Of a stretch of DNA of 64,000 nt, positions 17,532-49,406 are shown one piece after another. The notes beneath the pieces are model-generated. The model had not been told where the DNA came from and did not search any database. It saw nothing but the letters and a program-made list of their open reading frames with translations. The stretch's first letter is position 1. Each line of letters begins with the position of its first letter. The translations under genes were made by a program, and so were the position numbers. Source of the DNA: Bacteroidales bacterium (lineage in GTDB: Bacteria > Bacteroidota > Bacteroidia > Bacteroidales > VadinHA17); NCBI GenBank assembly GCA_049294275.1, contig JBAQCQ010000086.1:34160-98159 (forward strand), in the 5' to 3' direction.

Positions 17532-17537
17532 TATCTG

Positions 17538-30022: not shown

Positions 30023-31237
30023 TCACTTTATAATGAGGCCCATGGGAACACGCAGGAATTGAGCCCTGTATGCTTCGACATCCTCAAAGATATCCCTCAC
30101 ATCCAGAGAATTGACACAGTAGGTGACCAGCAGCCGGTCATCATCAATGTACTGACCGTGAGCAAGGGCATTGTAGGTGATGATATGGTTATCCGGATCA
30201 GAATCCGCCTCCGGGGCATGGTAGATGAACCTTTTATTATGAAAATCCTTATGCGGAAAATCTGAGATGTAAGTGTAAATATCATCTCCTGCCCTTTCCT
30301 GTGAAAGCAGGATATACTTGTCCCCGTACCTGAAGACACTGAACTGCTCCGACACGGAGATGTCAATATCGAGTGGTGCCGACCTGCTGATATCCTTATC
30401 CCACTCTTTCCCTGTAAAAAATTCCCAGCCCCGGTAAAAGTCAGCACTTTGCATGGAGACACGGGCAACGTGGATCTCCGAATGACCGGGATTGTTTCTC
30501 GTGCCGTAGATATAGAGGTAGCCACCGTCTGCCATGACACAGTTCCCGAAGTCGATCAGGCTGACAGGATAGTTGATCTCAACCCTGTGGGTCTCAAGAT
30601 GACTGAAACCGGGGAAGGTAAAAGACAGGAGATCAATATGGGAGATGGCGAAGGTAAATATGTTCTTCACCACCGTGTCAGCCGGCCGGTCGTTTTCACT
30701 GTCGTAAAAAGCCTGAATAGCGGCTGTGTCAGGCACATTTATAAGGCTGAGGGCAAAGACATGAACGGTATCGTTCTTCACAAAGCCGTGGCCGGGCCAG
30801 TACCAGCGGTAAGTCGAATCGCCGGGTTCATTTACCGGCTCCATCAATGTTTGCGGCCTCGCCCAGGTACCCCTGTATATCGGTCTCACAAGGGTCCTGT
30901 TACTGTCAATCAACACGAAAGCATTGCGCAACATCGTGGTCAACGTGTCCCTGGTACCGTTCACCACCTCGCCAAGAAAACAGTCGCCCAGCATGAAGAG
31001 TGACGATCCATCGGGCATCAGAACGGAGAAGAGGCCGTCAGCTCCTGTGATGCCTCCGGAATCAGAGTAGAAGAGTGAGCGAAAATCCTCATCAGCGGTG
31101 ACATGACCCGTTGTCGTTCGTCCCGGCTTGCAGGCTGATATCAGAAGAGCCAGAGATATACAAAACGCCAAGGATGCTTTCAGACTGGCTGTTCTGTTGC
31201 TGATAGTTCTTATTTTGAAGTTTCTGTTCTCTTTCAT
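30023..31237 (-). CDS. Lipoprotein, beta-propeller-like putative glycoside hydrolase (DUF4185-like by memory); paralog A
   Basis: 404 aa with lipobox LLISACK. It shares blocks with 31285..32619 and 35608..37008: GADGLFSVLMPDGSSLFMLGDCFLGEV, YRWYWPGHGF, GGYLYIYG, GWEFFTGKEWDKD, YNALAHGQY...LLVTYCVNS and YRAQFLRV. Confidence 0.55.
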   Translation of the reverse strand: MKENRNFKIRTISNRTASLKASLAFCISLALLISACKPGRTTTGHVTADEDFRSLFYSDSGGITGADGLFSVLMPDGSSLFMLGDCFLGEVVNGTRDTLTTMLRNAFVLIDSNRTLVRPIYRGTWARPQTLMEPVNEPGDSTYRWYWPGHGFVKNDTVHVFALSLINVPDTAAIQAFYDSENDRPADTVVKNIFTFAISHIDLLSFTFPGFSHLETHRVEINYPVSLIDFGNCVMADGGYLYIYGTRNNPGHSEIHVARVSMQSADFYRGWEFFTGKEWDKDISRSAPLDIDISVSEQFSVFRYGDKYILLSQERAGDDIYTYISDFPHKDFHNKRFIYHAPEADSDPDNHIITYNALAHGQYIDDDRLLVTYCVNSLDVRDIFEDVEAYRAQFLRVPMGLIIK

Positions 31238-31284
31238 GGCATCCGGATTTTTGGATCTGTGATCATGGTTACGTAATTGACCTC

Positions 31285-32619
31285 TTACTTCTGACTGTAC
31301 CTTACTCTGATAAACCTGGGGTGGTAGATGGTTGCATCCTTTTGTATATCTTCCCAGAAATCAAGGGTGATGGTATTATAGCTCACCAGCAGCTCGCCGG
31401 GGCCTGAGAGATGATAATGAGCCTTGGCATTGTATGGGAGCAGTCCTTTCTCAGCGTATTCGGGACATGTATATACCTCGTTGATATCCCCGAACGGACC
31501 GGCAGGACTTTCACCCACGCGGATGCCGATCTTGTCGGAGATGCCCATCACGGTAAAAGTCAGCAGGAACCTTCCGTCATCCGTGGGAGTTACACTGAGT
31601 TCGTTGGACACACCATCAGTGATCGGTGCAATATTCTCAACCCCTTTCACCCAATCCTCGCCGTTCCAGAATCTCCACGCCCCGATCTTTTCAATCCTGC
31701 CCGGCTTCGTCCTTGCAGCTAGAAGGGATTTGCGTCCCTCAGCAATTCCGTAGATGTAAACATATCCGTCAGGAAAGGGGGCTCCGGCGCTTCTGGTGTT
31801 GACCAGAATTCCGCTGCCAAAATAAACCCTTCCATATTCAGGATGGACAAAGCCCAGCCCAGTTGGGAATTGCTCATAGTGTGACATATTCTCCAATGAT
31901 GGTTTTCTTATCCTGATCAGGGCAACGTTGGTGGCCTCGAAATCAAAGACATTCGGACCGGTCTTGTGTACATGGTAGGCAAAGATGTAAAGGGCGTTCC
32001 GTTTCGCCCGGTTCACGAACCCGTCGCCCAGCCAGAAGTATTCTCCCTCCCTGCTGTTCTCATTATCAGGCACGAAATATGACACCGGATTGCCGTTCCG
32101 GTCCCGGTTATATTCAAATATCACCGAATCCCTTACGGGAAGAGTGCCGCTCATCAGGGCTATTGAGTTGTTAACCATTACATTACCCGGCTGAGGGACA
32201 CCATCTTTCACCTCTCCGATATATGTGTCACTGAAAATAAAAAGCGTCTTCTTCTCCTCCGCCCTACCCTCTTCAATCCCATCAAGGGGAATTGAGAAAA
32301 TACCGTCGGCGCCGAACCATCCGGAGGTGCGCTCCATAAGGGCGGTCCATTCAGGTGCCGGCTCAGCGGTGAAGGTGAGCGGCTTCAGGGGTTGGGATAT
32401 GCTTCTGCCGTTGTTGGCACCAGGTTCAGTTCCGCATCCACCTGTGATCAACAAGATCAGCAGGGCAATCAGCTCCCTTGTTCCTGTGACCAGCAGATAA
32501 AAGAACCCCCCTTTTCCCGTGATTGGCTGGGCAAAAATCTCCCGTTTTCTCATGACCGGCAGTGAAAATATCCTACCTGTTCTCGTGACCGGCGGTGCAA
32601 TATTCTCCTTCATTCTCAT
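31285..32619 (-). CDS. Lipoprotein, same beta-propeller-like family; paralog B (N-terminal region made of 11-aa repeats)
   Basis: 444 aa with lipobox LITGGCG. Shared blocks are GADGIFSIPLDG...LFIFSDTYIGEV, EYFWLGDGF, DGYVYIYG, AWRFWNGEDWVKG, YNAKAHYHL...LLVSYNTIT and YHPRFIRV. The start is ambiguous (32619 or the MRKRE Met at 32553). Confidence 0.55.
   Translation of the reverse strand: MRMKENIAPPVTRTGRIFSLPVMRKREIFAQPITGKGGFFYLLVTGTRELIALLILLITGGCGTEPGANNGRSISQPLKPLTFTAEPAPEWTALMERTSGWFGADGIFSIPLDGIEEGRAEEKKTLFIFSDTYIGEVKDGVPQPGNVMVNNSIALMSGTLPVRDSVIFEYNRDRNGNPVSYFVPDNENSREGEYFWLGDGFVNRAKRNALYIFAYHVHKTGPNVFDFEATNVALIRIRKPSLENMSHYEQFPTGLGFVHPEYGRVYFGSGILVNTRSAGAPFPDGYVYIYGIAEGRKSLLAARTKPGRIEKIGAWRFWNGEDWVKGVENIAPITDGVSNELSVTPTDDGRFLLTFTVMGISDKIGIRVGESPAGPFGDINEVYTCPEYAEKGLLPYNAKAHYHLSGPGELLVSYNTITLDFWEDIQKDATIYHPRFIRVRYSQK
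32461..32592. repeat. Four tandem imperfect 33-bp repeats at the 5' end of paralog B
   Basis: The units are 32461-32493, 32494-32526, 32527-32559 and 32560-32592. Each ends in (G/A)TGA(C/T)(C/T)(A/G)G, and the GTGACC-like cores are spaced exactly 33 bp apart. U3 versus U4 is 23/33 identical. They are translated as PVTRTGRIFSL/PVMRKREIFAQ/PITGKGGFFYL/LVTGTRELIAL. Confidence 0.8.
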
Positions 32620-32634
32620 TATCTGCTATTTAGA

Positions 32635-35529
32635 TTATTCCTCAACATATTTTGTGATCGCCTCTTTCCATACCAGATACCCTTTCCCGTTAAGGTGCAA
32701 ACCATCGCTGCTGTACTCCGGGTTAAGCTTGTTGTTTTCGAGCCTGAACAGTTCAAAGAGGTCGATATATGTTATCCCGTTGGCGCCGGCAATCTCCCTG
32801 AGCCGGTCGTTGATAGCTATGATGTCACTGTTGCGCCGGGTATAATGGAGGGCGTCGTCGGTCGGGATGACACTCTGAATGTAAATCCTTGTTCCGGGTG
32901 TTGAAGCGGTGATGAGCCGGATTATTTTTTTGTAATTTTCAATTATATAATCGACGCTCTTGCCGTTCGAAAGATCATTGGTGCCGATCATAATAAAGAT
33001 CTTCGAAGGCCGCGATTCTGTCACTTCTTCAAGCCTTTCAAGGATGCCGTCAGTGTCATCACCGCCGATGCCCCTGTTCCTGATCCTTGTGTTACTGAAA
33101 AGCTCCCACCATTCGGCATTATCGGTGATGCTGTTGCCAAGGAAGATGATCTCATTCTCACCGTTGGGCAAGCTCTCAAAGTGCTCCTTCTTATGGTAGT
33201 AATAGGCTCTCAGGGCTTTGTTCCATATCTCCAGCTCTTCGGCATACCGGTCATACTTTATAATCTCGCCAATCTGCTCTGCTGTCATCCCGGAACTCAT
33301 TGAGGGTGGCGCCTTCTCCGGGCTGCTGCCCCATTCCTTTTCCGGCATTGAGCTCATCTCAAGCACCAGCCTGCCGCCGGCGGCAAAATCTGAGTGAGGG
33401 AACCAGGGACCTTCCAGCTCCTCACCGTTGAGTTTCGCTTTCCTGATAAAGCCCTTCCCGGGGGAACTGTTCCCGGCCTCAATGATAAACTCACCGCCGG
33501 GATAATATCTTTCATCGAGACGGATAGTCACCTTCTCAAAAACTGGACTTCCAATCTCATAAATGGGAGTGGCAGATGTGCCGCCGTCGGTTTGGAAGAG
33601 GCCAATGGCACTCATAACATAGAGGGCTGCTGACTGTGCGGGGTCATCAGCGGCAGAGCCCATTGGGGCATCATTCTTCTGATAACCTGAGAGAATCTCC
33701 CGAACCCATTTCTGCGTAAGCCAGGGGGCACCGGCGTAATTGAAGAGCCAGGCAGCCTGCAGGGGTGACTGCCGGAAACTATAGCCGCCGGAGAAGAGCC
33801 TCTCTTTTATATCATCGTCGCTGTCCTCTTCTTTACGGTCGGGTGAGAGACAATCAGAGATCTCCCCCTCAAGCCTTGTCACAAAATCTTCTCTTCCGTA
33901 AATATCAATCAGTCCCCTGACATCATGGGGAACGAAAGTCTGCATCACCCCGGCCTCAGGTTTGGCAAGATGCCTGTAACTGAAAGCCCTCTTTGCAAAA
34001 GTCCTGTAATCCGGCACATTCCCCGCTGCAAGGGCTATCTCAGCCATTGCCCCGTCATGATATGCATATTCAAAGGTGAGAGATGCAGGAGCCTTCTCCT
34101 CAGGCACATAACCCGAGGCAAGGTAGGTCTCAAGATATCTCTTGCCGGCAAATCCGCCACCTTCATGAGGCTTGCCGGCATTGCTCAGGTCATGCATCAG
34201 GGCCCTGTAGAGCATCACAGTGTCATAATCCCTTATCCCCTTCTGCAAGGCAGATGTCAAGAGGGGGATCAGCTGCGAACTGACGGGATGATCAGCATAT
34301 TCAATGCCTTCAGAGCCCTCCGGGAACCAGCCGCCGCAGGCGTGCAGGGCGAGCAGTGACCTGACATAACTGTTGACAAGGTCAGGCTGGCAGAGAGCCA
34401 TCAGCTGATTTATGGCCACGGTGCCCGGCCCCGGAGGGGTGCTTCCGAAAATAGCCAGGTCAGTATCATCAGGCTGCTGAACGTTTTCATACATATCAAC
34501 ATACTTTCCGTTCACATCACTCCATACGGTCAGTCCTGCGAAGACGCGGTACATAGCTGTGTAGAACATCCTGAGGTCAGCTTCGCTCCCACCCTCGACC
34601 CTGATGCCCATCAGGAGATCATTCCATGCCATTCGGTTCATCTCACTGACAGCGTCAAAATCCCAATTAAACGGACCCAGCTCTCTATCAAGATTAAGCC
34701 TGGCCTGGTCAATGCTCACCAGTGACACTCCTGACTGCACCAGTACCGTCTCCCCCTCATGGGTCTTAAAGTTCAGAAAGAGCCCCGTGCTTCCGTCGTC
34801 ATACAGTGAACGTATCTCCGTAATATCTCGCATGATCTCCCCGCCCAGCCATCCGTTGAATGTATCAAACGGCTTACTGAAGCGAACCACAAAGTGAAGT
34901 GTGTAGAGGTTGTGATGGGCACCGAGCAGGCTTCGTTGTCTGGAGAAACCCTCTATCTCCCTGTCGCTCACCTTCGTAATGCACGACTCAAGAAGTTCGT
35001 AACCGTTGTCGGTGGGGATCTTCAGGTCAAACAGGATGCGGGAAGAATCTGACTCCGGGAAGGTATATCTCTGGAATGCTGCCCTTGCGGTGGTAGTAAG
35101 CTCCGCTTTGATGCCGTAATCATCCAGGAAGACCGAATAGTAACCCAGCCGGGCTGTCTCGTTCTGATGGCTGAAGCGAGAACGGTAACCTGCGTCAGGG
35201 TCGTCAGGAGCACCGGGGACCATTTGCAGTTCACCTGTTGCCGGCATTACCAGCAGCCCTCCCATCGTGCGGGAGTGGATATGACTGAAGCCGGCAATAT
35301 TCCCAGTGTTATAATCATAACCGGCTTTATAACCCTTCATCTGGTTATCAGGACTGATCTTTACCATTCCGGCAGGCATGGTCACACCCGGGAAGAGTGT
35401 CCAGCGGGGTGAGGAGGTCCCCATCAGAGGATCAACATGGTCAACAGGATCTGCTCCGCCGGTCTGGGCTGTAAGTGTAAAACAAAAACCTGCAAGTAAC
35501 AGCATGGAGGAAATGATAAATTTTTTCAT
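32635..35529 (-). CDS. GH92-like domain fused to a C-terminal SGNH/GDSL esterase domain
   Basis: 964 aa with a signal peptide. The GH92 N-terminal pattern is VDPLMGTSSPRWTLFPGVTMPAGMVKISPDN, GFSHIH and SRFSHQNETARLGYYSVFLDDYGIKAELTTTARAAFQRYTF. The GH92 C-terminal pattern is NYAGAPWLTQKWVREIL and YEIGSPVFEKVTIRL. The last ~200 aa are SGNH blocks: IIFLGNSITD (I), RGIGGDDT (II), IMIGTNDL (III) and SSDGLHLN (V). Confidence 0.8.
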   Translation of the reverse strand: MKKFIISSMLLLAGFCFTLTAQTGGADPVDHVDPLMGTSSPRWTLFPGVTMPAGMVKISPDNQMKGYKAGYDYNTGNIAGFSHIHSRTMGGLLVMPATGELQMVPGAPDDPDAGYRSRFSHQNETARLGYYSVFLDDYGIKAELTTTARAAFQRYTFPESDSSRILFDLKIPTDNGYELLESCITKVSDREIEGFSRQRSLLGAHHNLYTLHFVVRFSKPFDTFNGWLGGEIMRDITEIRSLYDDGSTGLFLNFKTHEGETVLVQSGVSLVSIDQARLNLDRELGPFNWDFDAVSEMNRMAWNDLLMGIRVEGGSEADLRMFYTAMYRVFAGLTVWSDVNGKYVDMYENVQQPDDTDLAIFGSTPPGPGTVAINQLMALCQPDLVNSYVRSLLALHACGGWFPEGSEGIEYADHPVSSQLIPLLTSALQKGIRDYDTVMLYRALMHDLSNAGKPHEGGGFAGKRYLETYLASGYVPEEKAPASLTFEYAYHDGAMAEIALAAGNVPDYRTFAKRAFSYRHLAKPEAGVMQTFVPHDVRGLIDIYGREDFVTRLEGEISDCLSPDRKEEDSDDDIKERLFSGGYSFRQSPLQAAWLFNYAGAPWLTQKWVREILSGYQKNDAPMGSAADDPAQSAALYVMSAIGLFQTDGGTSATPIYEIGSPVFEKVTIRLDERYYPGGEFIIEAGNSSPGKGFIRKAKLNGEELEGPWFPHSDFAAGGRLVLEMSSMPEKEWGSSPEKAPPSMSSGMTAEQIGEIIKYDRYAEELEIWNKALRAYYYHKKEHFESLPNGENEIIFLGNSITDNAEWWELFSNTRIRNRGIGGDDTDGILERLEEVTESRPSKIFIMIGTNDLSNGKSVDYIIENYKKIIRLITASTPGTRIYIQSVIPTDDALHYTRRNSDIIAINDRLREIAGANGITYIDLFELFRLENNKLNPEYSSDGLHLNGKGYLVWKEAITKYVEE

Positions 35530-35607
35530 GGCCGGGTGTGGTTTGAGCCTGTTATTGAACTTAAAAATTCTTCTCTGCCGCTTTCCCGGGCGGCGGGTTG
35601 AAATCAG

Positions 35608-37008
35608 TTATCTGAAGATGAATTTTTTTGTCTCTGTACCCCATTTCCCGCTCAGGCGGACTATCATCATCCCTCCGCGGATGTGACTGCAGTTTATTTC
35701 GGTATCATCCCTCACTTCACACCGGAGGCAGAGCCTGCCGTCAAGACTGAAGATCTCCACCGAGGAAGAGGAAGAGATACTTCTTACCTGGAGGTATCGC
35801 GTCAGCGGATCATATGCAAGGTGGCTACCAGGAGTGTCGTAATCAACCCCTGCAATTCCCACAGGGTTATCAAAGATTGTGATGGTGTCAGGGATGGCAG
35901 CTGTCACCGCTCCCTCAACATCCAGCCAGAAAAAACGGGCCCTGTAATTGCGGGTATCCTGGTAGATCGAATTGAAGTTGGTGGTGTTGACATTGAACGA
36001 GATCAGGATATCACCCTCCTTCTGAAAATGCGGATGAGCGAAAAGGTTATATGTAATGTTTCCCGTGTGTGGCGTGATTTCCGCAAACTTGTTTTCAATC
36101 CCTCCAGACGACTTGCGGTTCCACGGGCCGGTTATCTTGTCGGCCTCAAGGATAAAGAGCTCGCCCACGAGCCATATCTCATGCATGATCAAATAGAACT
36201 TGCCGTTTCTTTCATACACGTAGAATGACTCGCTCATGGGCCTGTCTCCCAGCGGCACGGCATCCCTGATGTCGTCCGACCAGGTTTCAGATCCAGCGTA
36301 GAACTGCCACGGCTCATCTATGCTCCCGGATACCCTTGCCAGGTAGGGCAAAGGGTAGGTGAAACCGCCGGAGGTGGTGTCCCTGATCCCGAAGATGTAT
36401 GTGAACTCTCCGCTCCTGACGACGCAGGCACCAAAGCGGAAGGTGCTGTCTGTAACCGATTCGAATTTGGTGGTCGAAATATGTTTCATAGCCGGGTATT
36501 CGTAGGAGGCCCTGTAGGTTGTTCCGACCTGAAAATTGAATCCCGGGATCCCGTTGTCAACTATCTTCACCCTCACCGCAAAGACCTTAACAGTATCATC
36601 TTCTATTACCGCATGCTCCGGCCAGAAAAAATCAGCTCCCTCCCCGGGGATGAATGATGAGGGATTTTCTGAGGTTCCGCCGTGCAGGGTATTCATAGCC
36701 GTACCATCTTCAATAATGGCGGCATTGTTTATCATCCTTGAACCCACAGGAATAATGGTGAACTCTCCGCTTTTTGTCCCGATGAAACTGTCGCCAAAAA
36801 GCCAGAATGTCTTGCCGTCCGGAAGAGGGAGGGAGATGGTCGCATCACCGGCGCACCATCCTCCCGCCACACTGGTGAATTTGTCAAAGTGCTCCGGCGC
36901 CTCCGATATAACATGCTGAGCCTGGAGTTCAGAGATAAGGAGTGGCTGTGTCGTCAGCGTCAACAACAAAATATATCTGAACAATATGGTAATGTCTCTG
37001 ATCATCAA
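35608..37008 (-). CDS. Same beta-propeller-like family, paralog C, with a T9SS (Por) C-terminal sorting domain
   Basis: 466 aa with a signal peptide ending LQAQ. Shared blocks are CAGDATISLPLPDGKTFWLFGDSFIGTK, DFFWPEHA, GEFTYIFG, PWQFYAGSETWSDD, YNLFAHPHF...ILISFNVNT and YRARFFWL. The last ~70 aa (VEIFSLDGRLCLRCEV...INCSHIRGGMMIVRLSGKWGTETKKFIFR) fit the T9SS CTD pattern. Confidence 0.6.
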   Translation of the reverse strand: MMIRDITILFRYILLLTLTTQPLLISELQAQHVISEAPEHFDKFTSVAGGWCAGDATISLPLPDGKTFWLFGDSFIGTKSGEFTIIPVGSRMINNAAIIEDGTAMNTLHGGTSENPSSFIPGEGADFFWPEHAVIEDDTVKVFAVRVKIVDNGIPGFNFQVGTTYRASYEYPAMKHISTTKFESVTDSTFRFGACVVRSGEFTYIFGIRDTTSGGFTYPLPYLARVSGSIDEPWQFYAGSETWSDDIRDAVPLGDRPMSESFYVYERNGKFYLIMHEIWLVGELFILEADKITGPWNRKSSGGIENKFAEITPHTGNITYNLFAHPHFQKEGDILISFNVNTTNFNSIYQDTRNYRARFFWLDVEGAVTAAIPDTITIFDNPVGIAGVDYDTPGSHLAYDPLTRYLQVRSISSSSSVEIFSLDGRLCLRCEVRDDTEINCSHIRGGMMIVRLSGKWGTETKKFIFR

Positions 37009-37038
37009 TTAGTTTTGTGGCTGTCGGCTACAGGAGGG

Positions 37039-39378: not shown

Positions 39379-39390
39379 TGTTTGTCTATT

Positions 39391-41175: not shown

Positions 41176-42634
41176 TCTGGGTCAGCTTGGGATTTAGATA
41201 TCTCTCCTTCTGGGGTATGGGAAACAGTGTGTGATAAGACTGTATATTCGCAGTTGGCTTGGCCAGTTGAACACGCTCAATGAGTTTTCCCATCCGCACC
41301 AGGTCATACCACCGATGCCCCTCCATCACAAATTCCCACTGCCTCTCCTGTAAGATGGCATCCTTGAACGACTGATAGTCCAGTCCTTCCGGCAGGTCAA
41401 CGAGGCCAGCCCTGTTACGGATGTCATTTATGGCATTATATGCACCGAGGTCAGGACCATTATTGATTTCGTTAAGCGCTTCTGCATACATCAGCACCAC
41501 ATCCGAATAACGGAGGTAGATGAAGTCAGCATCGGATTCACCGTTCTGCCTCCCTCCTTCAGCCTCCTGATCCCAATACTTCCTGATGTAAGGCCCATTG
41601 AACACCTCTCCTTCAAATTCGGTGATGAAGGTTGCCGCCTTCCTCTCATCGGTGTCACTGTAACTGTTGTAAAGATGATCAATCGGTCGTTCCCAGCCCT
41701 GGCCGTTTCTCACCCCGTTGGGAGAATCAGTGGTTGGCATAAGCCTTACCATGAACTGGTTCGTGGTCCAACCCTCACCCAGCGTGCCGCTGAAGTTTAT
41801 TGCCCATAAAATCTCCCCTGAATTGGCATTGCCGATCTTGAAAATATCTGCAAATTCCGGCTCAAGTGTATAATGTCCAATAACCTTCTCAAGAGAGGTT
41901 TTTGCAGATGAGAAATCTGCGGCGTTGCCGGTCAGCGCTCCCCTCGTAAGATAGGCCTTGGCCAGCAACGCGGAGGCCGTATGGCTTGTGGGCATCCCTT
42001 CCACTCTCTTGGAAAATGGGTTGACTGCAAGAAGCTGTTCAGCCTTCTGGAGATCGCTGATAATGCTTTCATAAACATCAGCCACAGGACTTCTTTCGAT
42101 CTGCGATTCGGTTACACTCTTCGTCGGGAAAAGCTGGAGAGGAACATCCCCGAACAATCTCACCAGATCGAAATAGAGCATCCCCCGAATGAAATAGGCT
42201 TCACCCTGAAGATGATCCTTTACCTCCGGTTCCGAATAATCAGTGATGTTCCCGGATTCTTCCAGGAGGACATTGGCCGACTGGATAACCTCATAACAGC
42301 CGACCCATATATAATAAAGAGTGGAGTTATTAACATCAAAAGTGAACTGTGACAGGTCATGCATATCAATCGACGGACCGGTCTCATAGCAGTTATCAGA
42401 GGCGAGATCCTGAAGAACCCAGTAATTATTGAAAAACAATCCGCCGCCGGTCCATGTCCATGTGATCAGTCCTGCAAACATGCCGTCGGCAAAGGAGATC
42501 AGATCATCTTCCGTCAGGAAATAGTTATCATAGTTCAGTTCAGAACGCAGGTCCTGTTCAAGGAAGTCTTTGCAGCTGGTCAGTAAGAGCAGCATGACCG
42601 TCATCAATATTGTGATTTTCTTCATTGCAGGCAA
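41159..42634 (-). CDS. susD: SusD/RagB-family nutrient-binding outer-membrane lipoprotein
   Basis: 491 aa with lipobox LLLTSCKD. The SusD-like TPR pattern is present (EAYFIRGMLYFDLVRLFGDVPL, RYSDVVLMYAEAL, RQWEFVMEGHRWYDLVR). It lies immediately downstream of susC. Confidence 0.92.
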   Translation of the reverse strand: MPAMKKITILMTVMLLLLTSCKDFLEQDLRSELNYDNYFLTEDDLISFADGMFAGLITWTWTGGGLFFNNYWVLQDLASDNCYETGPSIDMHDLSQFTFDVNNSTLYYIWVGCYEVIQSANVLLEESGNITDYSEPEVKDHLQGEAYFIRGMLYFDLVRLFGDVPLQLFPTKSVTESQIERSPVADVYESIISDLQKAEQLLAVNPFSKRVEGMPTSHTASALLAKAYLTRGALTGNAADFSSAKTSLEKVIGHYTLEPEFADIFKIGNANSGEILWAINFSGTLGEGWTTNQFMVRLMPTTDSPNGVRNGQGWERPIDHLYNSYSDTDERKAATFITEFEGEVFNGPYIRKYWDQEAEGGRQNGESDADFIYLRYSDVVLMYAEALNEINNGPDLGAYNAINDIRNRAGLVDLPEGLDYQSFKDAILQERQWEFVMEGHRWYDLVRMGKLIERVQLAKPTANIQSYHTLFPIPQKERYLNPKLTQNEGYN

Positions 42635-42642
42635 TTTAATGG

Positions 42643-45600
42643 TTAAAAGGTGGCGTTGATGCTGAAAAGCAGCGTTCTGGCCATGGGGTATGCTCCATAA
42701 TCAGCACCCTTGCCGAAAACGCTTCCGCCGAAGATAGATACCTCCGGGTCATAACCCGAGTAACGGGTCAGAGTATAAAGATTGGTGCCACTGAGCGAAA
42801 GGCGAAGGTTACTTATTCTGACTTTGTCAAGCAACTCCCCGTGAAGATCGTAGGAAAAGACCACCTCCTTTAGCCTGGCATAGGAACCATCCTCCACATA
42901 AACATCCGACATAATTATGCCGTGGGGTGAGGCATTAGCCCTGGGGTACTTGTTGGTAGGATTACTCTCCGTCCATCTCTCCAGGGCAACGGCAGCATTG
43001 TTCTGGTAACCGTCAAAACTCTCAAGCTGAAACCTGTTGAAATTTACGATCTCATTCCCGTAATCGCCCTGTATATAAATATCGAGCGAGAAGTTACCGT
43101 ACGAAAAGGTGTTCTTGAGGCCGAATGAAAAATCAGGATTGGCATTGCCGAGTTCATAGTAATCATCCACAGTAAGTTTCTCGTCCAGGTTCCTGTCAGC
43201 ATATTTGCGGTCTCCGTAACGTGCTATCTTGGCAGGAAAGAAGGGTACCTCTGACAGCTCTTCATTCAGCTGGATTATCCCGTCCGACTTGTATCCGTAG
43301 ATCATCCCGATGGGTTTGCCCTCGCTGATCATTGTCCAGTCCAGGATATTGAGTACCGAGGTTCCGTAAATATTCTCAGACTTGTCAAGATTGGTAACCT
43401 CGTTCCTGTTGAATGAGAGATTGAATCGGGTATTCCATTTGAATTTGTCAATGAAATTGACACTGTTGACCGAGAACTCAATGCCACGGTTCTGCAGGTC
43501 ACCGACATTGGCCCAGACATATTCAAATCCGGAGGATCTGTTAACCGGCAGGTAAAGAAGCAGGTCAGTGGTGTTCTTCAGGTATGTCTCTGCGGTAAAT
43601 TCGACACGAGATCCGAAGAGGCTGAGGTCAAGCCCCAGATCAAACTGCCTGGTCACCTCCCATTTAAGGTCATTGTTCTGAAGTGAATAGACATATGTGC
43701 CTATAACTTCTGCGCTACTGCCCTCCCCGTAAAAATACTGTCGCGTACCCATAAGGCTCAGGGTGCTTCCTGAAGGTATGCCTTCGTTGCCCACACTTCC
43801 GGCACTTATCCTCAGTTTAAGGTCATTGACAGCTTCAGCATTTTCGAGGAAAGGTTCTTTGCTGAGGCGCCATGCAGCTGAGACCGAAGGGAAGAAACCG
43901 TACTTGTTGTCGGTCCCAAACTTTGACGATCCATCAAGCCGCCCGGAGAAGGTCAGATAATACTTGTTGTCATAATCATACATGACCCTCGCCAGTCCTG
44001 ATAACATCGACCATGAGCTGTAGCCTGAATAAACGCTTTTATCAAGCCCCATGCTGAGGTTGTAGTATCCCAATCGCTCATCCTCAAAGCGTTCAACGGC
44101 TATCTGGGCAGACTCGGATACATATTTCTGGGCAGTCTGGCCGGCCAGCAGGTTGAAATGATGCTTATCGAATGCAAGTTTGTAGGTTAATGTATTCTCC
44201 ATCAGCCAGGTGTAACCCTTGATATCCACATTTGACCCCTTCCCCTTATCCTGACCGCGCTTGATGAAACTGGGAATATACTGCTGTTCCTTGTTGAAGA
44301 AGGCATCAATGCCTATCTTGAATTTGTACTGCAAATCTTTTATGATATCCCAGGTGGTGTAGAAGTCGCCGATTACCCTGTCTGTAGTGATGACAATTTC
44401 TGTTTCATTCATCTCGGCTACAGGGTTCGGGATCCGGTTAATAGTATTGCTCTCGTAGGTGTAGCCCCCGGCCTGAGTCGAGTCATACACCTCCTGACCC
44501 GGATTGAACAGCAGGGCCATGGCAGTGACACTTGATGCCACGTTGGGAACACCTGTCGTGACGCCGTTGTTGACAGCATGAGACATGCTGATTCCAATGC
44601 CGGTCCTGACCTTCGGAGAGAGATCACTGTCAAGGTTTATTCTGAAAGCGCCCTTGTTGAAATCGGAATTGTGAATGATCCCCATATGCCTTACCACATT
44701 GGCAGACATGAAATACTGAGTATTGTCGCTCCCTCCCTGAATCGAGATCTGACCGTTCATCAGGGGAGCCGTACGGAAGATCTGTTCCTGCCAGTCGGTA
44801 CCCTCCCCGAACCGGCTGGGAACCGCGAAGTTGCTGCCAAATGCAATATCCGGATAATATTTCCTCGCTTCCGTGACAGCGTCATTACCCAGGTCAGCCA
44901 GCTCTCTCGCATTGAGCAGATCGAGCTTTTTCGAGAGCTTCTGTATCCCGTAGGCCAGGTTAAGGTTGACCTTCAGATCCCCTTTCGTACCTCGCCTGGT
45001 GTTTATGAGGATCACGCCGTTGGCACCTCTGGCTCCGTAGATAGCGGTTGCCGAAGCATCCTTAAGCACCTGCATCGACTCTATATCCTGGGGATTGATG
45101 CTTATCAACGGATTGATGTCGGATCCCTGGATGGTACCTGAAGTGAGCTCCTGCGAAGCCGTAATTATTGGTATCCCGTCAACAACATAAAGCGGTTCGT
45201 TGGTCCCGTTGATAGAGGTTGTGCCCCTGATACGGATTGAGACCGGAGCTCCGGGTTTTCCTGATGTCTGGCTTACTACCACACCCGAAGCCTGTCCCTG
45301 AAGAGACTGATCAAGCGAGGTGATCGCCGGTGAAGTCAGGTCTTTGGTGGCCACAGACGACATGGAGACCGTGACATCACCCTTGCGCTGTGTACCGTAA
45401 CCTATAACCACTATCGCATCCAGCTCGGTGACTTCCGGTGTCATGATGAATTCATAGAAGGTGATGCCCTCAGCCAACTGCCGGGTGGCACGGCCATAAC
45501 CGACGAAAGAACAGCTGAGTGACCTTGCGGTACTTTTATCAACCGTCAGGGTAAACTCACCGTAAGCGTTTGTGCTCGTTCCCGTTGTCGTCCCGTCAAC

Positions 45601-45726
45601 AACAACCGTTACTCCCGGCATAGGCACCTTGTCATCATCTGTTACCTTCCCCCGGATGGTGATCTCCTGGGAAAAGGCTGTCTGCAGAAACAGAAACGGC
45701 AGGATTAAGAGGAATAAATGCTTCAT
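42643..45726 (-). CDS. susC: SusC/RagA-family TonB-dependent outer-membrane transporter
   Basis: 1027 aa. It has a signal peptide, a carboxypeptidase-regulatory-like domain (ITIRGKVTDDDKVPMPGVTVVV), a plug (VVIGYGTQRKGDVTVSM, IESMQVLKDASATAIYGARGANGVILINTRRG) and a C-terminal barrel ending TLLFSINATF. There is no N-terminal STN signalling domain. Confidence 0.95.
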   Translation of the reverse strand: MKHLFLLILPFLFLQTAFSQEITIRGKVTDDDKVPMPGVTVVVDGTTTGTSTNAYGEFTLTVDKSTARSLSCSFVGYGRATRQLAEGITFYEFIMTPEVTELDAIVVIGYGTQRKGDVTVSMSSVATKDLTSPAITSLDQSLQGQASGVVVSQTSGKPGAPVSIRIRGTTSINGTNEPLYVVDGIPIITASQELTSGTIQGSDINPLISINPQDIESMQVLKDASATAIYGARGANGVILINTRRGTKGDLKVNLNLAYGIQKLSKKLDLLNARELADLGNDAVTEARKYYPDIAFGSNFAVPSRFGEGTDWQEQIFRTAPLMNGQISIQGGSDNTQYFMSANVVRHMGIIHNSDFNKGAFRINLDSDLSPKVRTGIGISMSHAVNNGVTTGVPNVASSVTAMALLFNPGQEVYDSTQAGGYTYESNTINRIPNPVAEMNETEIVITTDRVIGDFYTTWDIIKDLQYKFKIGIDAFFNKEQQYIPSFIKRGQDKGKGSNVDIKGYTWLMENTLTYKLAFDKHHFNLLAGQTAQKYVSESAQIAVERFEDERLGYYNLSMGLDKSVYSGYSSWSMLSGLARVMYDYDNKYYLTFSGRLDGSSKFGTDNKYGFFPSVSAAWRLSKEPFLENAEAVNDLKLRISAGSVGNEGIPSGSTLSLMGTRQYFYGEGSSAEVIGTYVYSLQNNDLKWEVTRQFDLGLDLSLFGSRVEFTAETYLKNTTDLLLYLPVNRSSGFEYVWANVGDLQNRGIEFSVNSVNFIDKFKWNTRFNLSFNRNEVTNLDKSENIYGTSVLNILDWTMISEGKPIGMIYGYKSDGIIQLNEELSEVPFFPAKIARYGDRKYADRNLDEKLTVDDYYELGNANPDFSFGLKNTFSYGNFSLDIYIQGDYGNEIVNFNRFQLESFDGYQNNAAVALERWTESNPTNKYPRANASPHGIIMSDVYVEDGSYARLKEVVFSYDLHGELLDKVRISNLRLSLSGTNLYTLTRYSGYDPEVSIFGGSVFGKGADYGAYPMARTLLFSINATF

Positions 45727-45929
45727 TTCATTTATACATTATAAACTTATTTTATTGGCAGAACGGAACCTGCATGAAATCAAATATTCAAATTCCTTTG
45801 TGAGCTCTTGCTCATGCAAGCATCATGGTAGTTTGACTGTCAAAAAGAAGGCTCATCTCGGGTTCGCAGATCATGCGGGCTCTGGCCACAACGTATTCAG
45901 CAGTCTTGTAGTTAGAAGACAACAATTCA

Positions 45930-45975
45930 GGGTTGTCAGGGAGATATTATGACTGGCACACCTCACCGACAACCC
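45930..45975 (-). other. Stem-loop in the 272-nt spacer between the lipoprotein gene and susC
   Basis: GGGTTGTC (45930-45937) pairs with GACAACCC (45968-45975), an 8-bp stem with a 30-nt loop. It lies 24 nt after the upstream stop. There is no clear U-tract, so its function is unknown. Confidence 0.3.
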
Positions 45976-45998
45976 GGAACTGTAAGAAGTGATAAAGC

Positions 45999-46877
45999 CT
46001 ACCGTATTGTCAGCAACGAATTATCAATGTTACTGCAGCTCAGAGGGGCATTGGCCATTACGATTGCTTCCATGGCAGCCGTGCCGTAAGGTACAAAAGC
46101 TCCCTTTGCCTGGCTCTTGAAAGTGTTCTGAATATCCAGCAGACCAAATACAGGTATATCCCAGAACATAGTCATCTCTGATTCATTGGCCGCCGTAATC
46201 ATGTAATCATAATACTCGTCAATGGCGCTATCCTCATCCTGCATGAGCCTTCTGATAAGCCTGACAACTGAGATTGTGTCTCCGTTGTTGGGTGTCTCCT
46301 TGTAAACCCAGAAACAGAAATGGTGAAATTCATCAGCATAATCGACACCCAGATCCTCCTCATATGTGCCATCCTCGTTAAACCGGTAAATAATTGCAGC
46401 ATCGGCCGGAGTCAGGACATCCAATCCAAGCCATGTGCTTGCCGAGACTTTCCAGTCATATTTTACAAACATCGACTGAATTGAAATATTTATGTTGACC
46501 ACAAGCCCGACAGTTTTGAACTCATTCTCATCGTCTGTCAGCTCAAACTCAAATCCCAGTGTGTGCAGGTCATCAAACTCCTGCACGGTGTAGGTAAAAT
46601 TATATGTGTAAGTATTTTCTGACTGGACAAGCTGTGATGTCACATCAGTCCCGGCATCACGCTGAGTATCGACAACCTTGTAATATTTCAGTGATTTCAC
46701 TCCGTCAGCCTGAATGGTAACCGTGGCGGTTACCTCATCGCCTATGTTCAACTGGGGAGTTGATGAGGGAGTGATGGACATTTCAGTAGCTATATCCTTT
46801 TTGCAGGAGAGAAGCAGGAAGGCAGATCCGATTGCCACAATGGCAATAACAGGCAGAAGCAGAAGCAGTTTTTTCAT
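45999..46877 (-). CDS. Hypothetical lipoprotein encoded directly upstream of susC
   Basis: ORF 45999..46898. The likely start is MKKLLLLLPVIAIVAIGSAFLLLSCKKD at 46877 (lipobox LLSCK). I recognise no motifs. It is acidic and aromatic-rich, with lower GC than its neighbours. Confidence 0.6.
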   Translation of the reverse strand: MKKLLLLLPVIAIVAIGSAFLLLSCKKDIATEMSITPSSTPQLNIGDEVTATVTIQADGVKSLKYYKVVDTQRDAGTDVTSQLVQSENTYTYNFTYTVQEFDDLHTLGFEFELTDDENEFKTVGLVVNINISIQSMFVKYDWKVSASTWLGLDVLTPADAAIIYRFNEDGTYEEDLGVDYADEFHHFCFWVYKETPNNGDTISVVRLIRRLMQDEDSAIDEYYDYMITAANESEMTMFWDIPVFGLLDIQNTFKSQAKGAFVPYGTAAMEAIVMANAPLSCSNIDNSLLTIR

Positions 46878-46919
46878 AATTGTAGAGGTTAGATTCATAA
46901 ATAAATCATTAAAAAGACC

Positions 46920-46943
46920 ATATGTTCAGACATATGAACATAT
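46920..46943. promoter_or_regulatory. Perfect inverted repeat ATATGTTCA-N6-TGAACATAT in the promoter region of the SusC/D operon; candidate GntR/HutC operator
   Basis: The arms are 46920-46928 and 46935-46943 (9 bp, perfect), with spacer GACATA. It lies 22-45 bp upstream of the first ATG (46898) of the operon's first gene. The GntR gene ends 275 bp away. Confidence 0.4.
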
Positions 46944-47217
46944 AATTGATCAAAAATAATAAAAATAATTCGTAAAAAGAAATTTTTTTCAAAAGAAACC
47001 TAAACACCTGAAAATTAATAGGGAAAATTCGGAAAGATGTCATCCGGAAACTACCAGTTGTCAATAAAGTAGTTGATTTTGAGAAAATTAATATAAAAAT
47101 ACCTGCAAGGCTGTTTATAACTACCTGATTCTTATACTGGTGAATAGTTTCGAAATTTTATTTGCACAACAGCTATCAGAAGCAACATTGCGGGGCCAGC
47201 TGCATTCTCCGAATAAG

Positions 47218-47976
47218 TCAAATATCCCTCTCGCTTTCAACGATATATACAAAACTGTCTGTCCTATAGTAACTTACATTGTACTCTATGGGTCTCCCAC
47301 CCGGATCATAGACATACCGTTTACGCTTCAGGAGAGGGCCTCCGGAATCTGTCCGCAGTTTAATTGCAAGAGAGTCATCAGCAGCTACGGCGCTGATCTC
47401 TTCCCTGGACAGCTTGGCTACCGTGGCATAATTCTTTTCCAGAATTTCATAGAGCGGCTGGTTGAAATCTTCACTGCCGTTCAAACCGATTCTCGGGTGA
47501 AAGAAGGAGATGGACCAGACAAACGGTCCTTCATCACTGCCTCTCAGCCGTTCCAGCTTCAATATTTTCTTTTTGGGTGGTATCATGAAAAATCCTGATT
47601 GCTCCTGGTCAGCTTCTGCCCATTCGACATTCAGCTGGTAGTTCGTGATTGAGATGCCCATGGCCTTCATCTCCTGTGTGAAGCTCAACCAGTTTTTCAG
47701 TTTTGTATGAACTCCTACCTCAGCGACCCTGGTCCCAATACCCTTTTTCCTCACCAGTAAACCTTCATAAACCAGCTTGTTTGCTGCCTGTCTCAATGTA
47801 TTTCTGGAAATCCCAAGCAGTTTGGCCAGATCAACCTCATTCGGCAGGAATTTGCCTTTGGCATATTCAGGATCCCTTATCATCTCGCGTAGCAGGTTCT
47901 CAACCTGAACGTGTAAAGGAGATGAACTTTTATGATCGATCCTGAAATTCATCTTCGCTGCTTTACCCATAGTCAC
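47218..47976 (-). CDS. GntR-family transcriptional regulator, HutC subfamily (wHTH + UTRA)
   Basis: 252 aa. The wHTH reads LPNEVDLAKLLGISRNTLRQAANKLVYEGLLVRKKGIGTRV. A C-terminal UTRA-like effector domain follows. The true start may be the MNFRIDH Met at about 47952. Confidence 0.88.
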   Translation of the reverse strand: MTMGKAAKMNFRIDHKSSSPLHVQVENLLREMIRDPEYAKGKFLPNEVDLAKLLGISRNTLRQAANKLVYEGLLVRKKGIGTRVAEVGVHTKLKNWLSFTQEMKAMGISITNYQLNVEWAEADQEQSGFFMIPPKKKILKLERLRGSDEGPFVWSISFFHPRIGLNGSEDFNQPLYEILEKNYATVAKLSREEISAVAADDSLAIKLRTDSGGPLLKRKRYVYDPGGRPIEYNVSYYRTDSFVYIVESERDI

Positions 47977-48179
47977 ACCGGTTTTGTCATAGAAGAATTA
48001 TCAATATGCAAGTTCGCCAAATTATTTATATAAGCAATTTTCTTCGTTATATGCAATGAAAAGTCTCGGATATTTCTTATCTTAACTTTCTTTCTCAAAT
48101 CCGGGCGGTGGCTTTGATTATTATCTGCCCGTGCAAATCAGGCTTTTTATTTAAGTTTGACATTGAATTGTATGCTTGG

Positions 48180-49406
48180 ATGAATTCGCGTGAAAGGATA
48201 TTGTCGGCAATAAACCACCGGCAACCTGACAGGGTTCCGGTTGACCTGGCAGCCTCAACGGTAACCGGCATCTCGGCAATTGCATGCAGCAACCTCAAAA
48301 AATATCTGGGAATAGATAAACCGACAAGGGTTTTTGACGTTGTTCAGCAGCTGGCCAATATCGATATGGAGATCATTGACCTCTTCGGTGTTGATGCCCT
48401 GGACATCAACCGGATATCTGCCGAAACCGGCGAGTGGTATGAAGTTGAACTGGCAGATGGCAACAGGGTGGAATTCCCCGCCTGGTACCGGCCCCAAAGA
48501 CTTCCTGACGGATCATGGGAGACAACCGATGAAGAGGGCAGGGTGCTGTCGCGAATGCCTGCCGGTGCAACATGCTTCGACCAGACCTTCTTCCCTTACG
48601 AAAACGGCTACCCTGAAAACTTTGACGGCCTGAAGGAGGCACTGAAAAAAATCAGCTGGGTGGTTCATTCACATGCATCCAACCTCGATGCCCCGGAACT
48701 CAGGGAACGGCTTCTGAGACTCAGGGATGAGACAGGAAAAGCCCTGGTGATGTCGGGAGGTGTCAAGCTGCTTGAGCTGGGATTTTTCGCCAGGAGAATG
48801 GATAATTTCCTGACCGACCTTCTGGTTGACCGCGAAAAACTGTGTGAGATGCTTGACCGGTTGGTTGAGATGCATCTTGCAGGACTGGAGAAGAAGATCA
48901 ACGCCCTGGGAGACATTGTTGACGTTATACGCTTCGGCGATGACCTGGGCATGAAGACCGGGCCGTTCATGGACCTTGATACCTTCCGAGAGGTGTTCAT
49001 ACCGCGTTACAAAATACTCTGCGACTATGTCAAAAAGCACAGCAGCATGAAGATCTTCCTCCATTCATGCGGCAGTGTCAGGCAGTATATCCCTGACCTC
49101 ATCGAGGTTGGCTTTGACATCCTGAACCCGGTGCAGACCAACTCGCGCGGCATGGACCCGGAGGAGCTGAAGAGAGAATTCGGGAAAGACATCGTCTTCT
49201 GGGGCGGAGGCGTGGATACAACCACTGTCATCAACAGGGGCACCCCCGATGAGATCAGAAGGGATGTCCTGCGGCGCTGCGAGATCTTCTCAGAAGATGG
49301 CGGCTTTGTCTTCGCACCCATTCATAACATACTTTCTGAAGTCCCCCCGCAGAACATAGTCGCTGCCTATAACGCGGTCAGGGAGTTCAACGGAGAGCTT
49401 CGCTGA
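48180..49406 (+). CDS. Uroporphyrinogen-decarboxylase (URO-D/MtaA-like) family protein, cytoplasmic
   Basis: ORF 48108..49406. The likely start is MNSRERILSAINHRQPDRVPVD at 48180. The URO-D fold pattern is PDRVPV...RFGDDLGMKTGPFM...IFLHSCGSV...GFDILNPVQ...FWGGGVDT...GFVFAPIHN. Confidence 0.75.
   Translation: MNSRERILSAINHRQPDRVPVDLAASTVTGISAIACSNLKKYLGIDKPTRVFDVVQQLANIDMEIIDLFGVDALDINRISAETGEWYEVELADGNRVEFPAWYRPQRLPDGSWETTDEEGRVLSRMPAGATCFDQTFFPYENGYPENFDGLKEALKKISWVVHSHASNLDAPELRERLLRLRDETGKALVMSGGVKLLELGFFARRMDNFLTDLLVDREKLCEMLDRLVEMHLAGLEKKINALGDIVDVIRFGDDLGMKTGPFMDLDTFREVFIPRYKILCDYVKKHSSMKIFLHSCGSVRQYIPDLIEVGFDILNPVQTNSRGMDPEELKREFGKDIVFWGGGVDTTTVINRGTPDEIRRDVLRRCEIFSEDGGFVFAPIHNILSEVPPQNIVAAYNAVREFNGELR

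Follow-up and report, generated by a model that had tools for sequence, protein, structure and literature searches.

A GntR/HutC-linked polysaccharide utilization locus in a Bacteroidales genome, probably a partly decayed form of a widespread Bacteroidota locus type for an O-acetylated, mannose-yielding glycan

Results and Discussion

A derived version of a widespread locus type

We describe here a polysaccharide utilization locus (PUL) on contig JBAQCQ010000086.1 of a Bacteroidales bacterium, within a stretch of 64,000 nucleotides (hereafter the window), which comprises nine minus-strand genes running from 46898 down to 30023 together with the co-directional gene of a GntR/HutC regulator at 47218-47976. 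Our analysis makes it probable, at moderate confidence, that this is a PUL repressed by the GntR/HutC protein and directed at an O-acetylated, mannose-yielding glycan, and that it is the partly decayed form which a locus type widespread in Bacteroidota has taken in this lineage. As a PUL it belongs to a known kind of system; here it appears as a distinct and widespread variant, with two enzyme groups that find no place among the described families and with the decay of one catalytic domain.

The proteins of the window were scanned with Pfam and NCBIfam hidden Markov models (HMMs) and compared with the PDB by phmmer, folds being predicted by AlphaFold and then searched with Foldseek, while related loci were collected by a scan of one genome per species, which gave 80 loci, followed by tblastn, clustering of open reading frames (ORFs) and Pfam searches on the cluster representatives. 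In about 35 of 83 loci the genes follow a canonical order, namely lipoprotein, SusC, SusD, mannose-6-phosphate isomerase (PMI), a transporter of the major facilitator superfamily (MFS) or Sugar_tr type, a ROK kinase, an (alpha/alpha)6 barrel protein, an active fusion of glycoside hydrolase (GH) family 92 with an SGNH esterase, and one or two beta-propellers. Such canonical loci occur in Bacteroidales, Cyclobacteriaceae, Roseivirgaceae, Reichenbachiella, Fulvivirga sp. M361, a Flavobacteriaceae metagenome-assembled genome (MAG) and Gracilimonas mengyeensis, and the GntR gene is often adjacent, being linked in 22-23 related loci. Since the same gene set and order are found in dozens of genomes from several orders, the arrangement is not due to chance. 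Besides the canonical form, Chryseolinea-type loci have a SASA esterase in place of SGNH, and some loci add an Abhydrolase_2 esterase, a GH38 enzyme or a sulfatase.

The only catabolic genes conserved in these loci are those of the transporter, the ROK kinase and the PMI, which suggests mannose as the main product, and the intact GH92 motifs of the canonical fusion and the GH38 enzyme of some variant loci count in the same direction. Moreover, that an acetylesterase is fused to an exo-alpha-mannosidase suggests alpha-mannosyl residues with O-acetyl groups in the substrate, in analogy to xanthan breakdown, where an esterase acts first and the mannosidase (GH38 or GH92) and a GH94 enzyme act afterwards (PMC10154613). 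An O-acyl decoration of the substrate is further supported by the SASA replacement, by the extra Abhydrolase_2 and by the SGNH domain being kept where GH92 has been lost.

Compared with the canonical form, the clade of the window, whose closest relatives are the Bacteroidales MAGs WOFB09 and UBA4772 (96% identity), has lost the transporter and the kinase, has gained a third propeller with a putative C-terminal domain (CTD) for secretion, has a GH92 domain that is very probably dead, and carries a URO-D-like gene beside the GntR gene; in the close relatives L011 and L063 the PMI is lost as well. In fact, no homolog of the MFS/sugar transporter or of the ROK kinase was found in the whole 64-kb window.

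Orphan PULs are common, and the initial annotation had called this one an orphan SusC/SusD locus; it is an orphan of a conserved kind, not confined to this genome but a derived form of a widespread type. Full-text literature searches, which also covered DUF4961, DUF5004, BACOVA_0488x and GH92 combined with SGNH, returned no functional work on DUF5005, the locus type or the barrel family, and the paper on LamH gives no PUL data; among the proteins of the locus Pfam and NCBIfam reveal, as anticipated, none of the hallmark families by which characterised polysaccharide systems are recognised.

Decay of the GH92 domain fused to an intact esterase

The decay is most evident in the 964-aa protein, annotated initially as a GH92-like/SGNH fusion. 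Both domains are indeed present, the GH92-like one at residues ~25-750 (nt 33280-35457; GH92N PF17678, E = 3e-66, and GH92 PF07971, E = 1e-84 in two stretches) and the SGNH one at residues ~790-960 (nt 32650-33162; Lipase_GDSL_2; PF13472, E = 6e-28), but the catalytic motifs of GH92 are missing. In some 40 orthologous fusions of ~995 aa (47-53% identity), EGNAWQ(Y/F) stands ten residues ahead of VPHD, and NHGNQP is present as well as GDEDQGQMGAW, the motif of the conserved base and Ca2+. In the window fusion the EGNAWQY segment is deleted, SFRQSP stands for NHGNQP, and SAADDPAQSAAL stands for GDEDQGQMGAW, one Asp of this third motif being kept in the window and variable within the clade. The alignment with BT3130 (PDB 6f91) breaks at query residues 529/531 and skips chain residues 500-538, corresponding to a deletion of 34 residues between residues 530 and 531 (~nt 33937-33942). 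In BT3130 the general acid is Glu535, the counterpart of Glu533 in BT3990 (PMC5930347), and when the chain is mapped to the native numbering this Glu535 appears to fall inside the missing segment.

The degenerate GH92 domain, with the 34-residue deletion, SFRQSP-type sequences and a variable third motif, is common to the window and to L002/3, L005, L006, L011, L022, L048 and L063, while in L008, L009, L010 and L074 the GH92 part is wholly lost and an SGNH protein of ~250 aa is left. When canonical fusions are compared with one another, no part is better conserved than the GH92 catalytic region (70-78% identity; SGNH 62-70%); between the window protein and L002, L048 or L063 the order is reversed, as the GH92 catalytic region is the least conserved part (54-61%) and SGNH reaches 75-79%. 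The SGNH blocks GNS800, GIGGD820, GTN851D and D942GLH945 are intact (Ser800, Asn851, Asp942, His945), and this domain matches the sialate O-acetylesterases 6njc and 7pzg at E ~1e-48. Given the lost motifs, the faster divergence of the GH92 part and the intact SGNH blocks, it is very probable that in the lineage of the window the GH92 domain is inactive and that the esterase is the selected function of the fusion; the degenerate domain should thus not be counted as a working mannosidase in this lineage. As to the Ca2+-dependent exo-alpha-mannosidases BT3990, BT3130 and BT3965, their N-terminal and catalytic folds are recognisable in the window protein, and the canonical orthologs keep all motifs, whereas the window protein differs from these three enzymes by the absence of the ~34-residue general-acid segment, by two altered motifs and by the fusion to SGNH.

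Transport core, isomerase and regulator

An adjacent SusC/SusD pair, with 8 nt between the two genes, stands in the locus together with co-located enzymes and a dedicated regulator, and the family matches (TIGR04056 at 829 bits for SusC; PF07980 and PF14322 for SusD) agree with the earlier recognition of a SusC/SusD glycan-utilisation locus. Pfam and NCBIfam find CarboxypepD_reg (CarbopepD_reg_2), Plug and barrel domains in SusC and no STN domain, just as had been noted. The 299-aa lipoprotein encoded by the first gene matches no Pfam or NCBIfam family; presumably it binds glycan at the cell surface. From the N-termini, lipoboxes are read in the 299-aa protein, SusD and the 779-, 444- and 404-aa proteins, and signal peptides in SusC and the 466- and 964-aa proteins, while the 594-aa protein has none.

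The 594-aa protein was correctly seen as a PMI-like cupin. Its residues ~245-594 form a type I PMI, which matches 1qwr both by sequence (E = 1e-12) and by Foldseek (E = 1.5e-14), and the metal ligands Gln343, His345, Glu363 and His428 are invariant in 36 homologs. Pfam and NCBIfam, including the PMI models of Pfam, give no match to this protein, which belongs to a very large family of more than 8000 matches already named class I mannose-6-phosphate isomerase by NCBI and JGI. Residues 1-245 are confidently modelled as an alpha/beta domain with neither a Pfam match nor a separate fold match in the PDB.

As for regulation, neither a hybrid two-component system nor an extracytoplasmic-function sigma/anti-sigma pair is present at the locus, and the expected control through the GntR protein gains support from a conserved palindrome upstream. 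By aligning the regions 5' of the first gene we found the palindrome ATGTTCA-N6-TGAACAT, which has a single match in the window, is exact in 15 related loci, and occurs with at most 2 mismatches, 9-70 nt 5' of the first gene or of GntR, in ~35 loci from several orders. Such conservation across orders fits GntR control, and the palindrome at 46922-46941 is a candidate GntR/HutC operator at which binding is predicted. Promoter scans were uninformative, with 30 sigma-70-type matches against 21 expected and a single, far away match of the Bacteroidetes -33/-7 type.

The propeller paralogs and the possibility of a D-arabinan substrate

Three paralogs of 466, 444 and 404 aa, which had been described as beta-propeller-like, all fall in the DUF4185/DUF5005 superfamily. 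They are mutually 22-27% identical, and each has orthologs of 62-76% identity in related genomes. The 444-aa protein reaches 49.3 bits with DUF4185 (PF13810), above the cut-off of 39.5, while the 404-aa (30.9 bits) and the 466-aa (25.8 bits) proteins stay below it; the 466-aa protein is in turn the sole paralog to pass DUF5005 (PF16396), at 31.7 bits against 29.6, and the 404-aa protein has E = 2e-7 for DUF4185 and E = 2e-6 for DUF5005, both below the curated cut-offs. In the PDB, the 444-aa protein matches the endo-alpha-D-arabinanase 8hhv (E = 2.5e-7) and 4hbs (E = 1.4e-6), and the 466-aa protein matches both as well; a phmmer search with the N-terminal 117 residues of the 404-aa protein reached 4hbs but not 8hhv. 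A profile of the three paralogs places them closer to 4hbs (BACOVA_04882, DUF5005; E = 1e-22) than to 8hhv (EndoMA1, GH183; E = 6e-12). When the three paralogs of the window were searched against 1.84 billion representatives, 3853 clusters (50% identity) were obtained at E <= 1e-3, and of 42 diverse members all match DUF4185 at E <= 1e-3 and 36 also DUF5005, two of these representatives having a clear CTD of the type IX secretion system (T9SS). In 50,697 phage records, tblastn with the 444-aa protein turned up a spurious match and nothing else.

Between the paralog family and true DUF5005, hhalign gives a probability of 100% and E = 1e-41 at 21% identity, with GWxGGDG and FxDSF aligned and both Asp motifs included. 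Since only the 466-aa protein passes the DUF5005 cut-off and the identity in this alignment is 21%, the family would be a clade of the GH183/DUF5005 superfamily that is a sister of DUF5005 rather than a clear member of it. Each paralog has an Asp pair in G(A/G)D...(G/S)D(C/S/T), namely D67/D85 (404 aa), D55/D73 (466 aa) and D105/D131 (444 aa), spaced by 18 residues in the first two and with an 8-residue insertion between the pair in the third, and both Asp are invariant in the 42 members. DUF4185 is GH183, which was characterised in 2023 as a family of endo-D-arabinofuranases (PMC10115798, PMC10509167), whose catalytic Asp nucleophile and Asp acid/base lie some 18 residues apart near the N-terminus of the propeller, at Asp33/Asp51 in EndoMA1 (PMC10509167) and at D170/D188 in DgGH4185b; the pairs of the paralogs are their putative equivalents. 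The homology to 4hbs and 8hhv, together with weak GH68 matches, suggests a five-bladed beta-propeller fold, and the proteins are predicted to be retaining glycosidases with an Asp-Asp pair like that of GH183. This largest paralog family of the locus had been called uncharacterised, which is still appropriate for the specificity of the clade and no longer for the superfamily. The 444-aa protein probably starts at an internal Met23.

The 466-aa protein, an extra copy confined to the clade of the window, had also been assigned a T9SS CTD. Its C-terminal tail aligns with positions 5-74 of the 75 in Por_Secre_tail and thus over nearly the full profile, but the score of 18.3 bits is below the cut-off of 27, and TIGR04183 gives E = 0.006.

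This kinship raises an alternative that we regard as rather unlikely, and yet as deserving a careful account, i.e. that the locus is a PUL for D-arabinan or lipoarabinomannan (LAM)-type glycans which feeds on the arabinomannan, LAM or arabinogalactan of mycolata and other Actinomycetota. The propellers would then be GH183 endo- or exo-alpha-D-arabinofuranosidases, the ancestral GH92 would trim the mannan core, the esterase would deacylate, and the (alpha/alpha)6 protein would be an exo-beta-D-arabinofuranosidase or a mannanase. Every characterised GH183 member is an endo-D-arabinofuranase, the 444-aa protein passes the DUF4185 score and matches 8hhv, the Asp pair has GH183 spacing, GH92 together with GH183-like enzymes fits a glycan of mannan plus arabinan, and the GH116 enzyme ExoMA2 is among the fold matches of the barrel; besides, the closest relatives are Bacteroidales MAGs, and such MAGs often come from sludge or digesters, where mycolata are common. 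D-arabinan was already on the glycan panel proposed with the initial annotation. Against these points, the paralogs are nearer to DUF5005 than to GH183, the best structural matches of the barrel are GH94 and not GH116, and the conserved catabolic module of ROK and PMI targets a hexose. Moreover, GH172, GH116-type enzymes (including subfamily 4), a FucI-type isomerase and ribulokinase, all of which the proven D-arabinan PUL42 of Dysgonomonas gadei has, were not found in the locus or in ~80 related loci. The missing exo-arabinofuranosidases and D-arabinose catabolic genes, together with the proximity to DUF5005, weigh against a D-arabinan system.

Two known systems are close enough for a comparison. 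PUL42 of D. gadei, which encodes the GH183 enzymes DgGH4185a/b, GH172, a FucI-type isomerase and ribulokinase (PMC10115798), shares with the window locus the SusC/SusD pair and several DUF4185-superfamily propellers, whose conserved Asp pairs are putatively equivalent. The window locus differs by having no GH172, D-arabinose isomerase, ribulokinase or GH116-type enzyme, and by having GH92-SGNH, the (alpha/alpha)6 lipoprotein, the PMI, GntR control and propellers nearer to DUF5005. The Bacteroides PULs with DUF5005 (PF16396; 4hbs, BACOVA_04882) also combine SusC/D with GH92 and SASA/GDSL esterases; for example, the true DUF5005 genes in Bacteroides xylanisolvens-type PULs are accompanied by two GH92, GH130, and SASA and GDSL esterases, so that propeller, GH92 and acetylesterase form a recurrent trio. 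These loci differ from that of the window in having two SusC/D pairs, DUF5004, DUF4961 and GH130, in having neither the 779-aa barrel nor the long PMI, and in a propeller identity of only ~21%. The mycobacterial methylmannose-polysaccharide hydrolase MmpH was considered as a DUF4185 protein and dropped, as the paper shows an (alpha/alpha)6 enzyme (PMC9883506).

The barrel lipoprotein and a possible likeness to xanthan breakdown

The 779-aa lipoprotein has no Pfam or NCBIfam match even at E <= 1 and no phmmer match in the PDB; a profile built from 36 sequences of its family finds chitobiose phosphorylase only (E = 0.005, over 68 residues), and its 358 homologs are all named hypothetical. In the AlphaFold model (pLDDT 77.5, pTM 0.83) a beta-sandwich stands at the N-terminus, a helical linker leads from it to an (alpha/alpha)6 barrel, and a small beta domain closes the chain at the C-terminus, which is the same four-part architecture as in GH94, GH65, GH63, GH15 and GH116 enzymes. 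Foldseek ranks GH94 phosphorylases at the top (E = 5e-20, TM ~0.6, 11-13% identity), then GH65, GH63 YgjK and GH116, with the GH116 exo-beta-D-arabinofuranosidase ExoMA2 at rank 49. Therefore the earlier description as GH63-like holds at the level of fold or clan and not further, there being no sequence family and GH94 being structurally closest. From all these enzymes the protein is set apart by the low identity and TM score, by the absence of a relationship at the HMM level and by its nature as a lipoprotein outside the cytoplasm, and for this last reason a hydrolase is more likely than a phosphorylase. The Asp-Asp-Asn that follows the lipobox Cys19 reads like a surface-export signal of Bacteroidota lipoproteins and suggests that the 779-aa protein is surface-exported.

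Distant paralogs of this protein (34-52% identity, often in tandem) occur outside SusC/D contexts in L042, L055-L058, L060, L045/L046 and L081-L083, with neighbours such as a UxuA-like dehydratase, an SDR, a solute-binding protein, GH38, a cupin glucose-6-phosphate isomerase and a KDPG-aldolase-like gene. These contexts suggest that the barrel family serves other pathways too, possibly linked with uronic acids.

It is in this fold that a second alternative finds its footing, namely a locus for xanthan-like or other acetylated exopolysaccharide, in which SGNH-GH92 would deacetylate and remove an acetylated alpha-mannose side chain while the barrel and the propellers would handle a non-mannan backbone. 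We consider it very improbable. The order of esterase and mannosidase and the GH94 enzyme in xanthan breakdown (PMC10154613), the GH94-like fold of the barrel, and the UxuA-like, SDR, KDPG-aldolase-like and GH38 genes beside its distant paralogs, with their hint at uronic-acid substrates, would all be accommodated, but neither the locus nor its canonical relatives have a polysaccharide lyase, GH88, GH5/GH9 or GH3, the barrel, a lipoprotein, is no more than 11-13% identical to the GH94 phosphorylases, and the only catabolic genes conserved in the locus are those for mannose.

The least probable alternative, which we would hardly credit, is that the locus no longer works and that the loss of GH92 catalysis, transporter and kinase is a step to pseudogenisation, for even though the faster divergence of the motif-less GH92 domain, the absence of MFS and ROK from the window and the loss of the GH92 domain or the PMI in related lineages agree with it, none of the nine tightly packed ORFs is broken, the invariant residues are kept in SGNH, PMI, SusC/D, barrel and propellers, a third propeller with a putative secretion tag was acquired in the clade, the operator palindrome is intact, and the derived architecture persists across relatives at 72-96% identity, which argues for purifying selection.

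A proposed pathway and the points that weigh on it

We thus return to the GntR/HutC-repressed PUL for an O-acetylated, mannose-yielding glycan, for which the following pathway can be proposed. At the cell surface, the probably T9SS-exported 466-aa propeller, the 444- and 404-aa lipoprotein propellers and the 779-aa lipoprotein would cleave the polymer or remove its branches, barrel and propellers being the candidate depolymerases, and the 299-aa lipoprotein and SusD would bind the fragments. SusC, by its family, would take up the oligosaccharides. In the periplasm, the SGNH domain, whose catalytic residues are present, would strip O-acetyl groups; in the ancestral locus the fused GH92 would then remove the exposed alpha-mannose, while in this lineage the GH92 domain is probably a scaffold or binding module only. 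In the cytoplasm, phosphorylation of mannose would come first, and the long PMI, to judge from its fold and ligands, would turn the product into fructose-6-phosphate. The GntR/HutC protein would bind the palindrome and be released by a sugar or sugar-phosphate effector.

As to the substrate, two candidates can be named most concretely, an acylated alpha-mannan and an arabinomannan/lipomannan-type envelope glycan of other bacteria, an arabinomannan-type target being possible. Of the initial guess of an O-acylated alpha-mannoside- or alpha-glucoside-type glycan, an acylated alpha-mannoside is still the best candidate. In this respect, marine Bacteroidota alpha-mannan PULs carry GntR, MFS, ROK and PMI, and so resemble the mannose module and the control of the canonical form; the window locus differs from them in having no GH76, GH125, GH99 or sulfatases, its depolymerising candidates being the propellers and the barrel.

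Several points weigh against this pathway. With the GH92 degenerate, the kinase and the transporter missing and the PMI lost in L011 and L063, mannose may no longer be the main product in the clade. Those relatives of the propellers that have been characterised all act on D-arabinofuranosides and not on mannosides, and the Asp pair is proposed as the GH183 catalytic pair from motif position, spacing and the link through 4hbs. The model of the 779-aa protein has low-confidence loops in the catalytic domain, and each enzyme is placed at the surface or in the periplasm by prediction from the N-terminal sequences alone.

Layout of the locus and neighbouring genes

The ORFs of the window agree exactly with the ten co-directional minus-strand genes of the initial annotation (Table 1), and also with the tight packing reported there, the intergenic gaps being, from 3' to 5', 47, 15, 78, 30, 12, -17, 8 and 272 nt, i.e. 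-17 to 78 nt except for the 272 nt after the first gene. The GntR gene lies 319 nt 5' of the first locus gene, and 131 nt further on begins the divergent URO-D-like gene.

Table 1. Coordinates of the locus features in the window
Feature	Position	Strand	Remarks
Hairpin, likely a bidirectional terminator at the operon 3' end	29987-30016		13-bp stem, A-run/T-run flanks, between convergent gene ends
404-aa lipoprotein (DUF4185/DUF5005 superfamily)	30023-31237	-	Cys36 lipobox; putative Asp67/Asp85
444-aa lipoprotein, GH183-type DUF4185 paralog	31285-32619	-	putative Asp105/Asp131
964-aa secreted GH92-like/SGNH fusion	32635-35529	-	Pfam and NCBIfam
466-aa secreted DUF5005/DUF4185 paralog	35608-37008	-	putative Asp55/Asp73; ~90-aa C-terminal T9SS-like domain
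779-aa lipoprotein, (alpha/alpha)6 barrel	37039-39378	-	Cys19 then DDN; candidate glycosidase
594-aa cytoplasmic long-form class I mannose-6-phosphate isomerase	39391-41175	-	PDB 1qwr match
SusD-family lipoprotein	41159-42634	-	PF07980 E = 2e-38, PF14322 E = 6e-25
SusC/RagA TonB-dependent transporter	42643-45726	-	TIGR04056, 829 bits
299-aa lipoprotein, first gene of the operon	45999-46898	-	precedes SusC in 31 related loci
20-bp palindrome ATGTTCAGACATATGAACAT, candidate operator	46922-46941		24-43 nt 5' of first gene
GntR/HutC regulator, winged helix and UTRA	47218-47976	-	PF00392, PF07702
432-aa URO-D/MtaA-like protein, divergent from GntR	48108-49406	+	PF01208 E = 8e-19

In the URO-D/MtaA-like protein, PF01208 covers residues 229-426 only and the MtaA/CmuA matches of NCBIfam are weak. 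Its gene adjoins related loci in 12 cases, sometimes in 2-3 copies (e.g. L014, L015, L017, L019, L077, L080 and L081), and no corrinoid protein was noticed near it; that the protein takes part in the removal of O-methyl groups from sugars is conceivable, as pure speculation.

Beyond the hairpin, an OmpR-type response regulator and a histidine kinase are encoded at 27471-29492 (+), a pair that adjoins the locus only in L002, L003, L006 and L022. We rejected it as the regulator of the locus, as it is on the other strand, beyond the terminator, and kept only in the closest relatives. The small ORFs at 26092-27461 and 29555-29965 have no family match. Further away, at 12743-25794 (-), there is a complete L-arabinose/beta-L-arabinofuranoside cluster with an aldose 1-epimerase, a GH51-type alpha-L-arabinofuranosidase, two GH127 beta-L-arabinofuranosidases, an FGGY kinase, a NUDIX/NrtR-type AraR regulator, an L-arabinose isomerase, an SSF symporter and a 229-aa ORF that is probably AraD. 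Three small ORFs and the two-component pair separate this cluster from the locus, and it was discarded as a part of the system for having no conserved linkage in related loci. Next to it, a GH3 gene with a PA14 insert (7216-9909, -) adjoins a Gfo/Idh/MocA oxidoreductase (9944-11290) and a protein of the 3-keto-disaccharide hydrolase family (11308-12657), a pairing typical of oxidative (3-keto) glycoside cleavage.

The flanking housekeeping genes encode formate-tetrahydrofolate ligase (3181-4851), an RsmF-type methyltransferase (4944-6329) and the BipA/TypA GTPase (49581-51374). An AMP-binding enzyme at 59398-61312 (+) is split over two ORFs (profile positions 2-130 and 225-384), and a GSDH-family protein at 61327-62184 (+) is truncated (profile positions 1-204 of 332); these are possibly frameshifts, pseudogenes or assembly errors.

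Conclusions

A wider claim can be advanced only tentatively, namely that the locus type constitutes a pathway, widespread but not recognised until now, for some abundant microbial glycan with O-acetyl groups, e.g. acylated mannan or arabinomannan from bacterial necromass, in which the 779-aa protein founds a new GH family of GH94 fold, the DUF4185/DUF5005-like clade differs in specificity from GH183, and a GH92 domain is turning non-catalytic on an esterase. For annotation, the 964-aa protein serves as a caution, as an automated CAZyme annotation would call it an alpha-mannosidase, which it very probably is not. The unplaced enzymes, i.e. the (alpha/alpha)6 lipoprotein and the large GH183/DUF5005 clade, occur in this locus from marine Cytophagales to digester-type Bacteroidales, and the pair of conserved candidate operator and GntR regulator is usable for reporter-based substrate screens. 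Identification of the substrate would annotate hundreds of genomes at once, could add one or two families or specificities to CAZy, and could show which microbial glycan these bacteria recycle.

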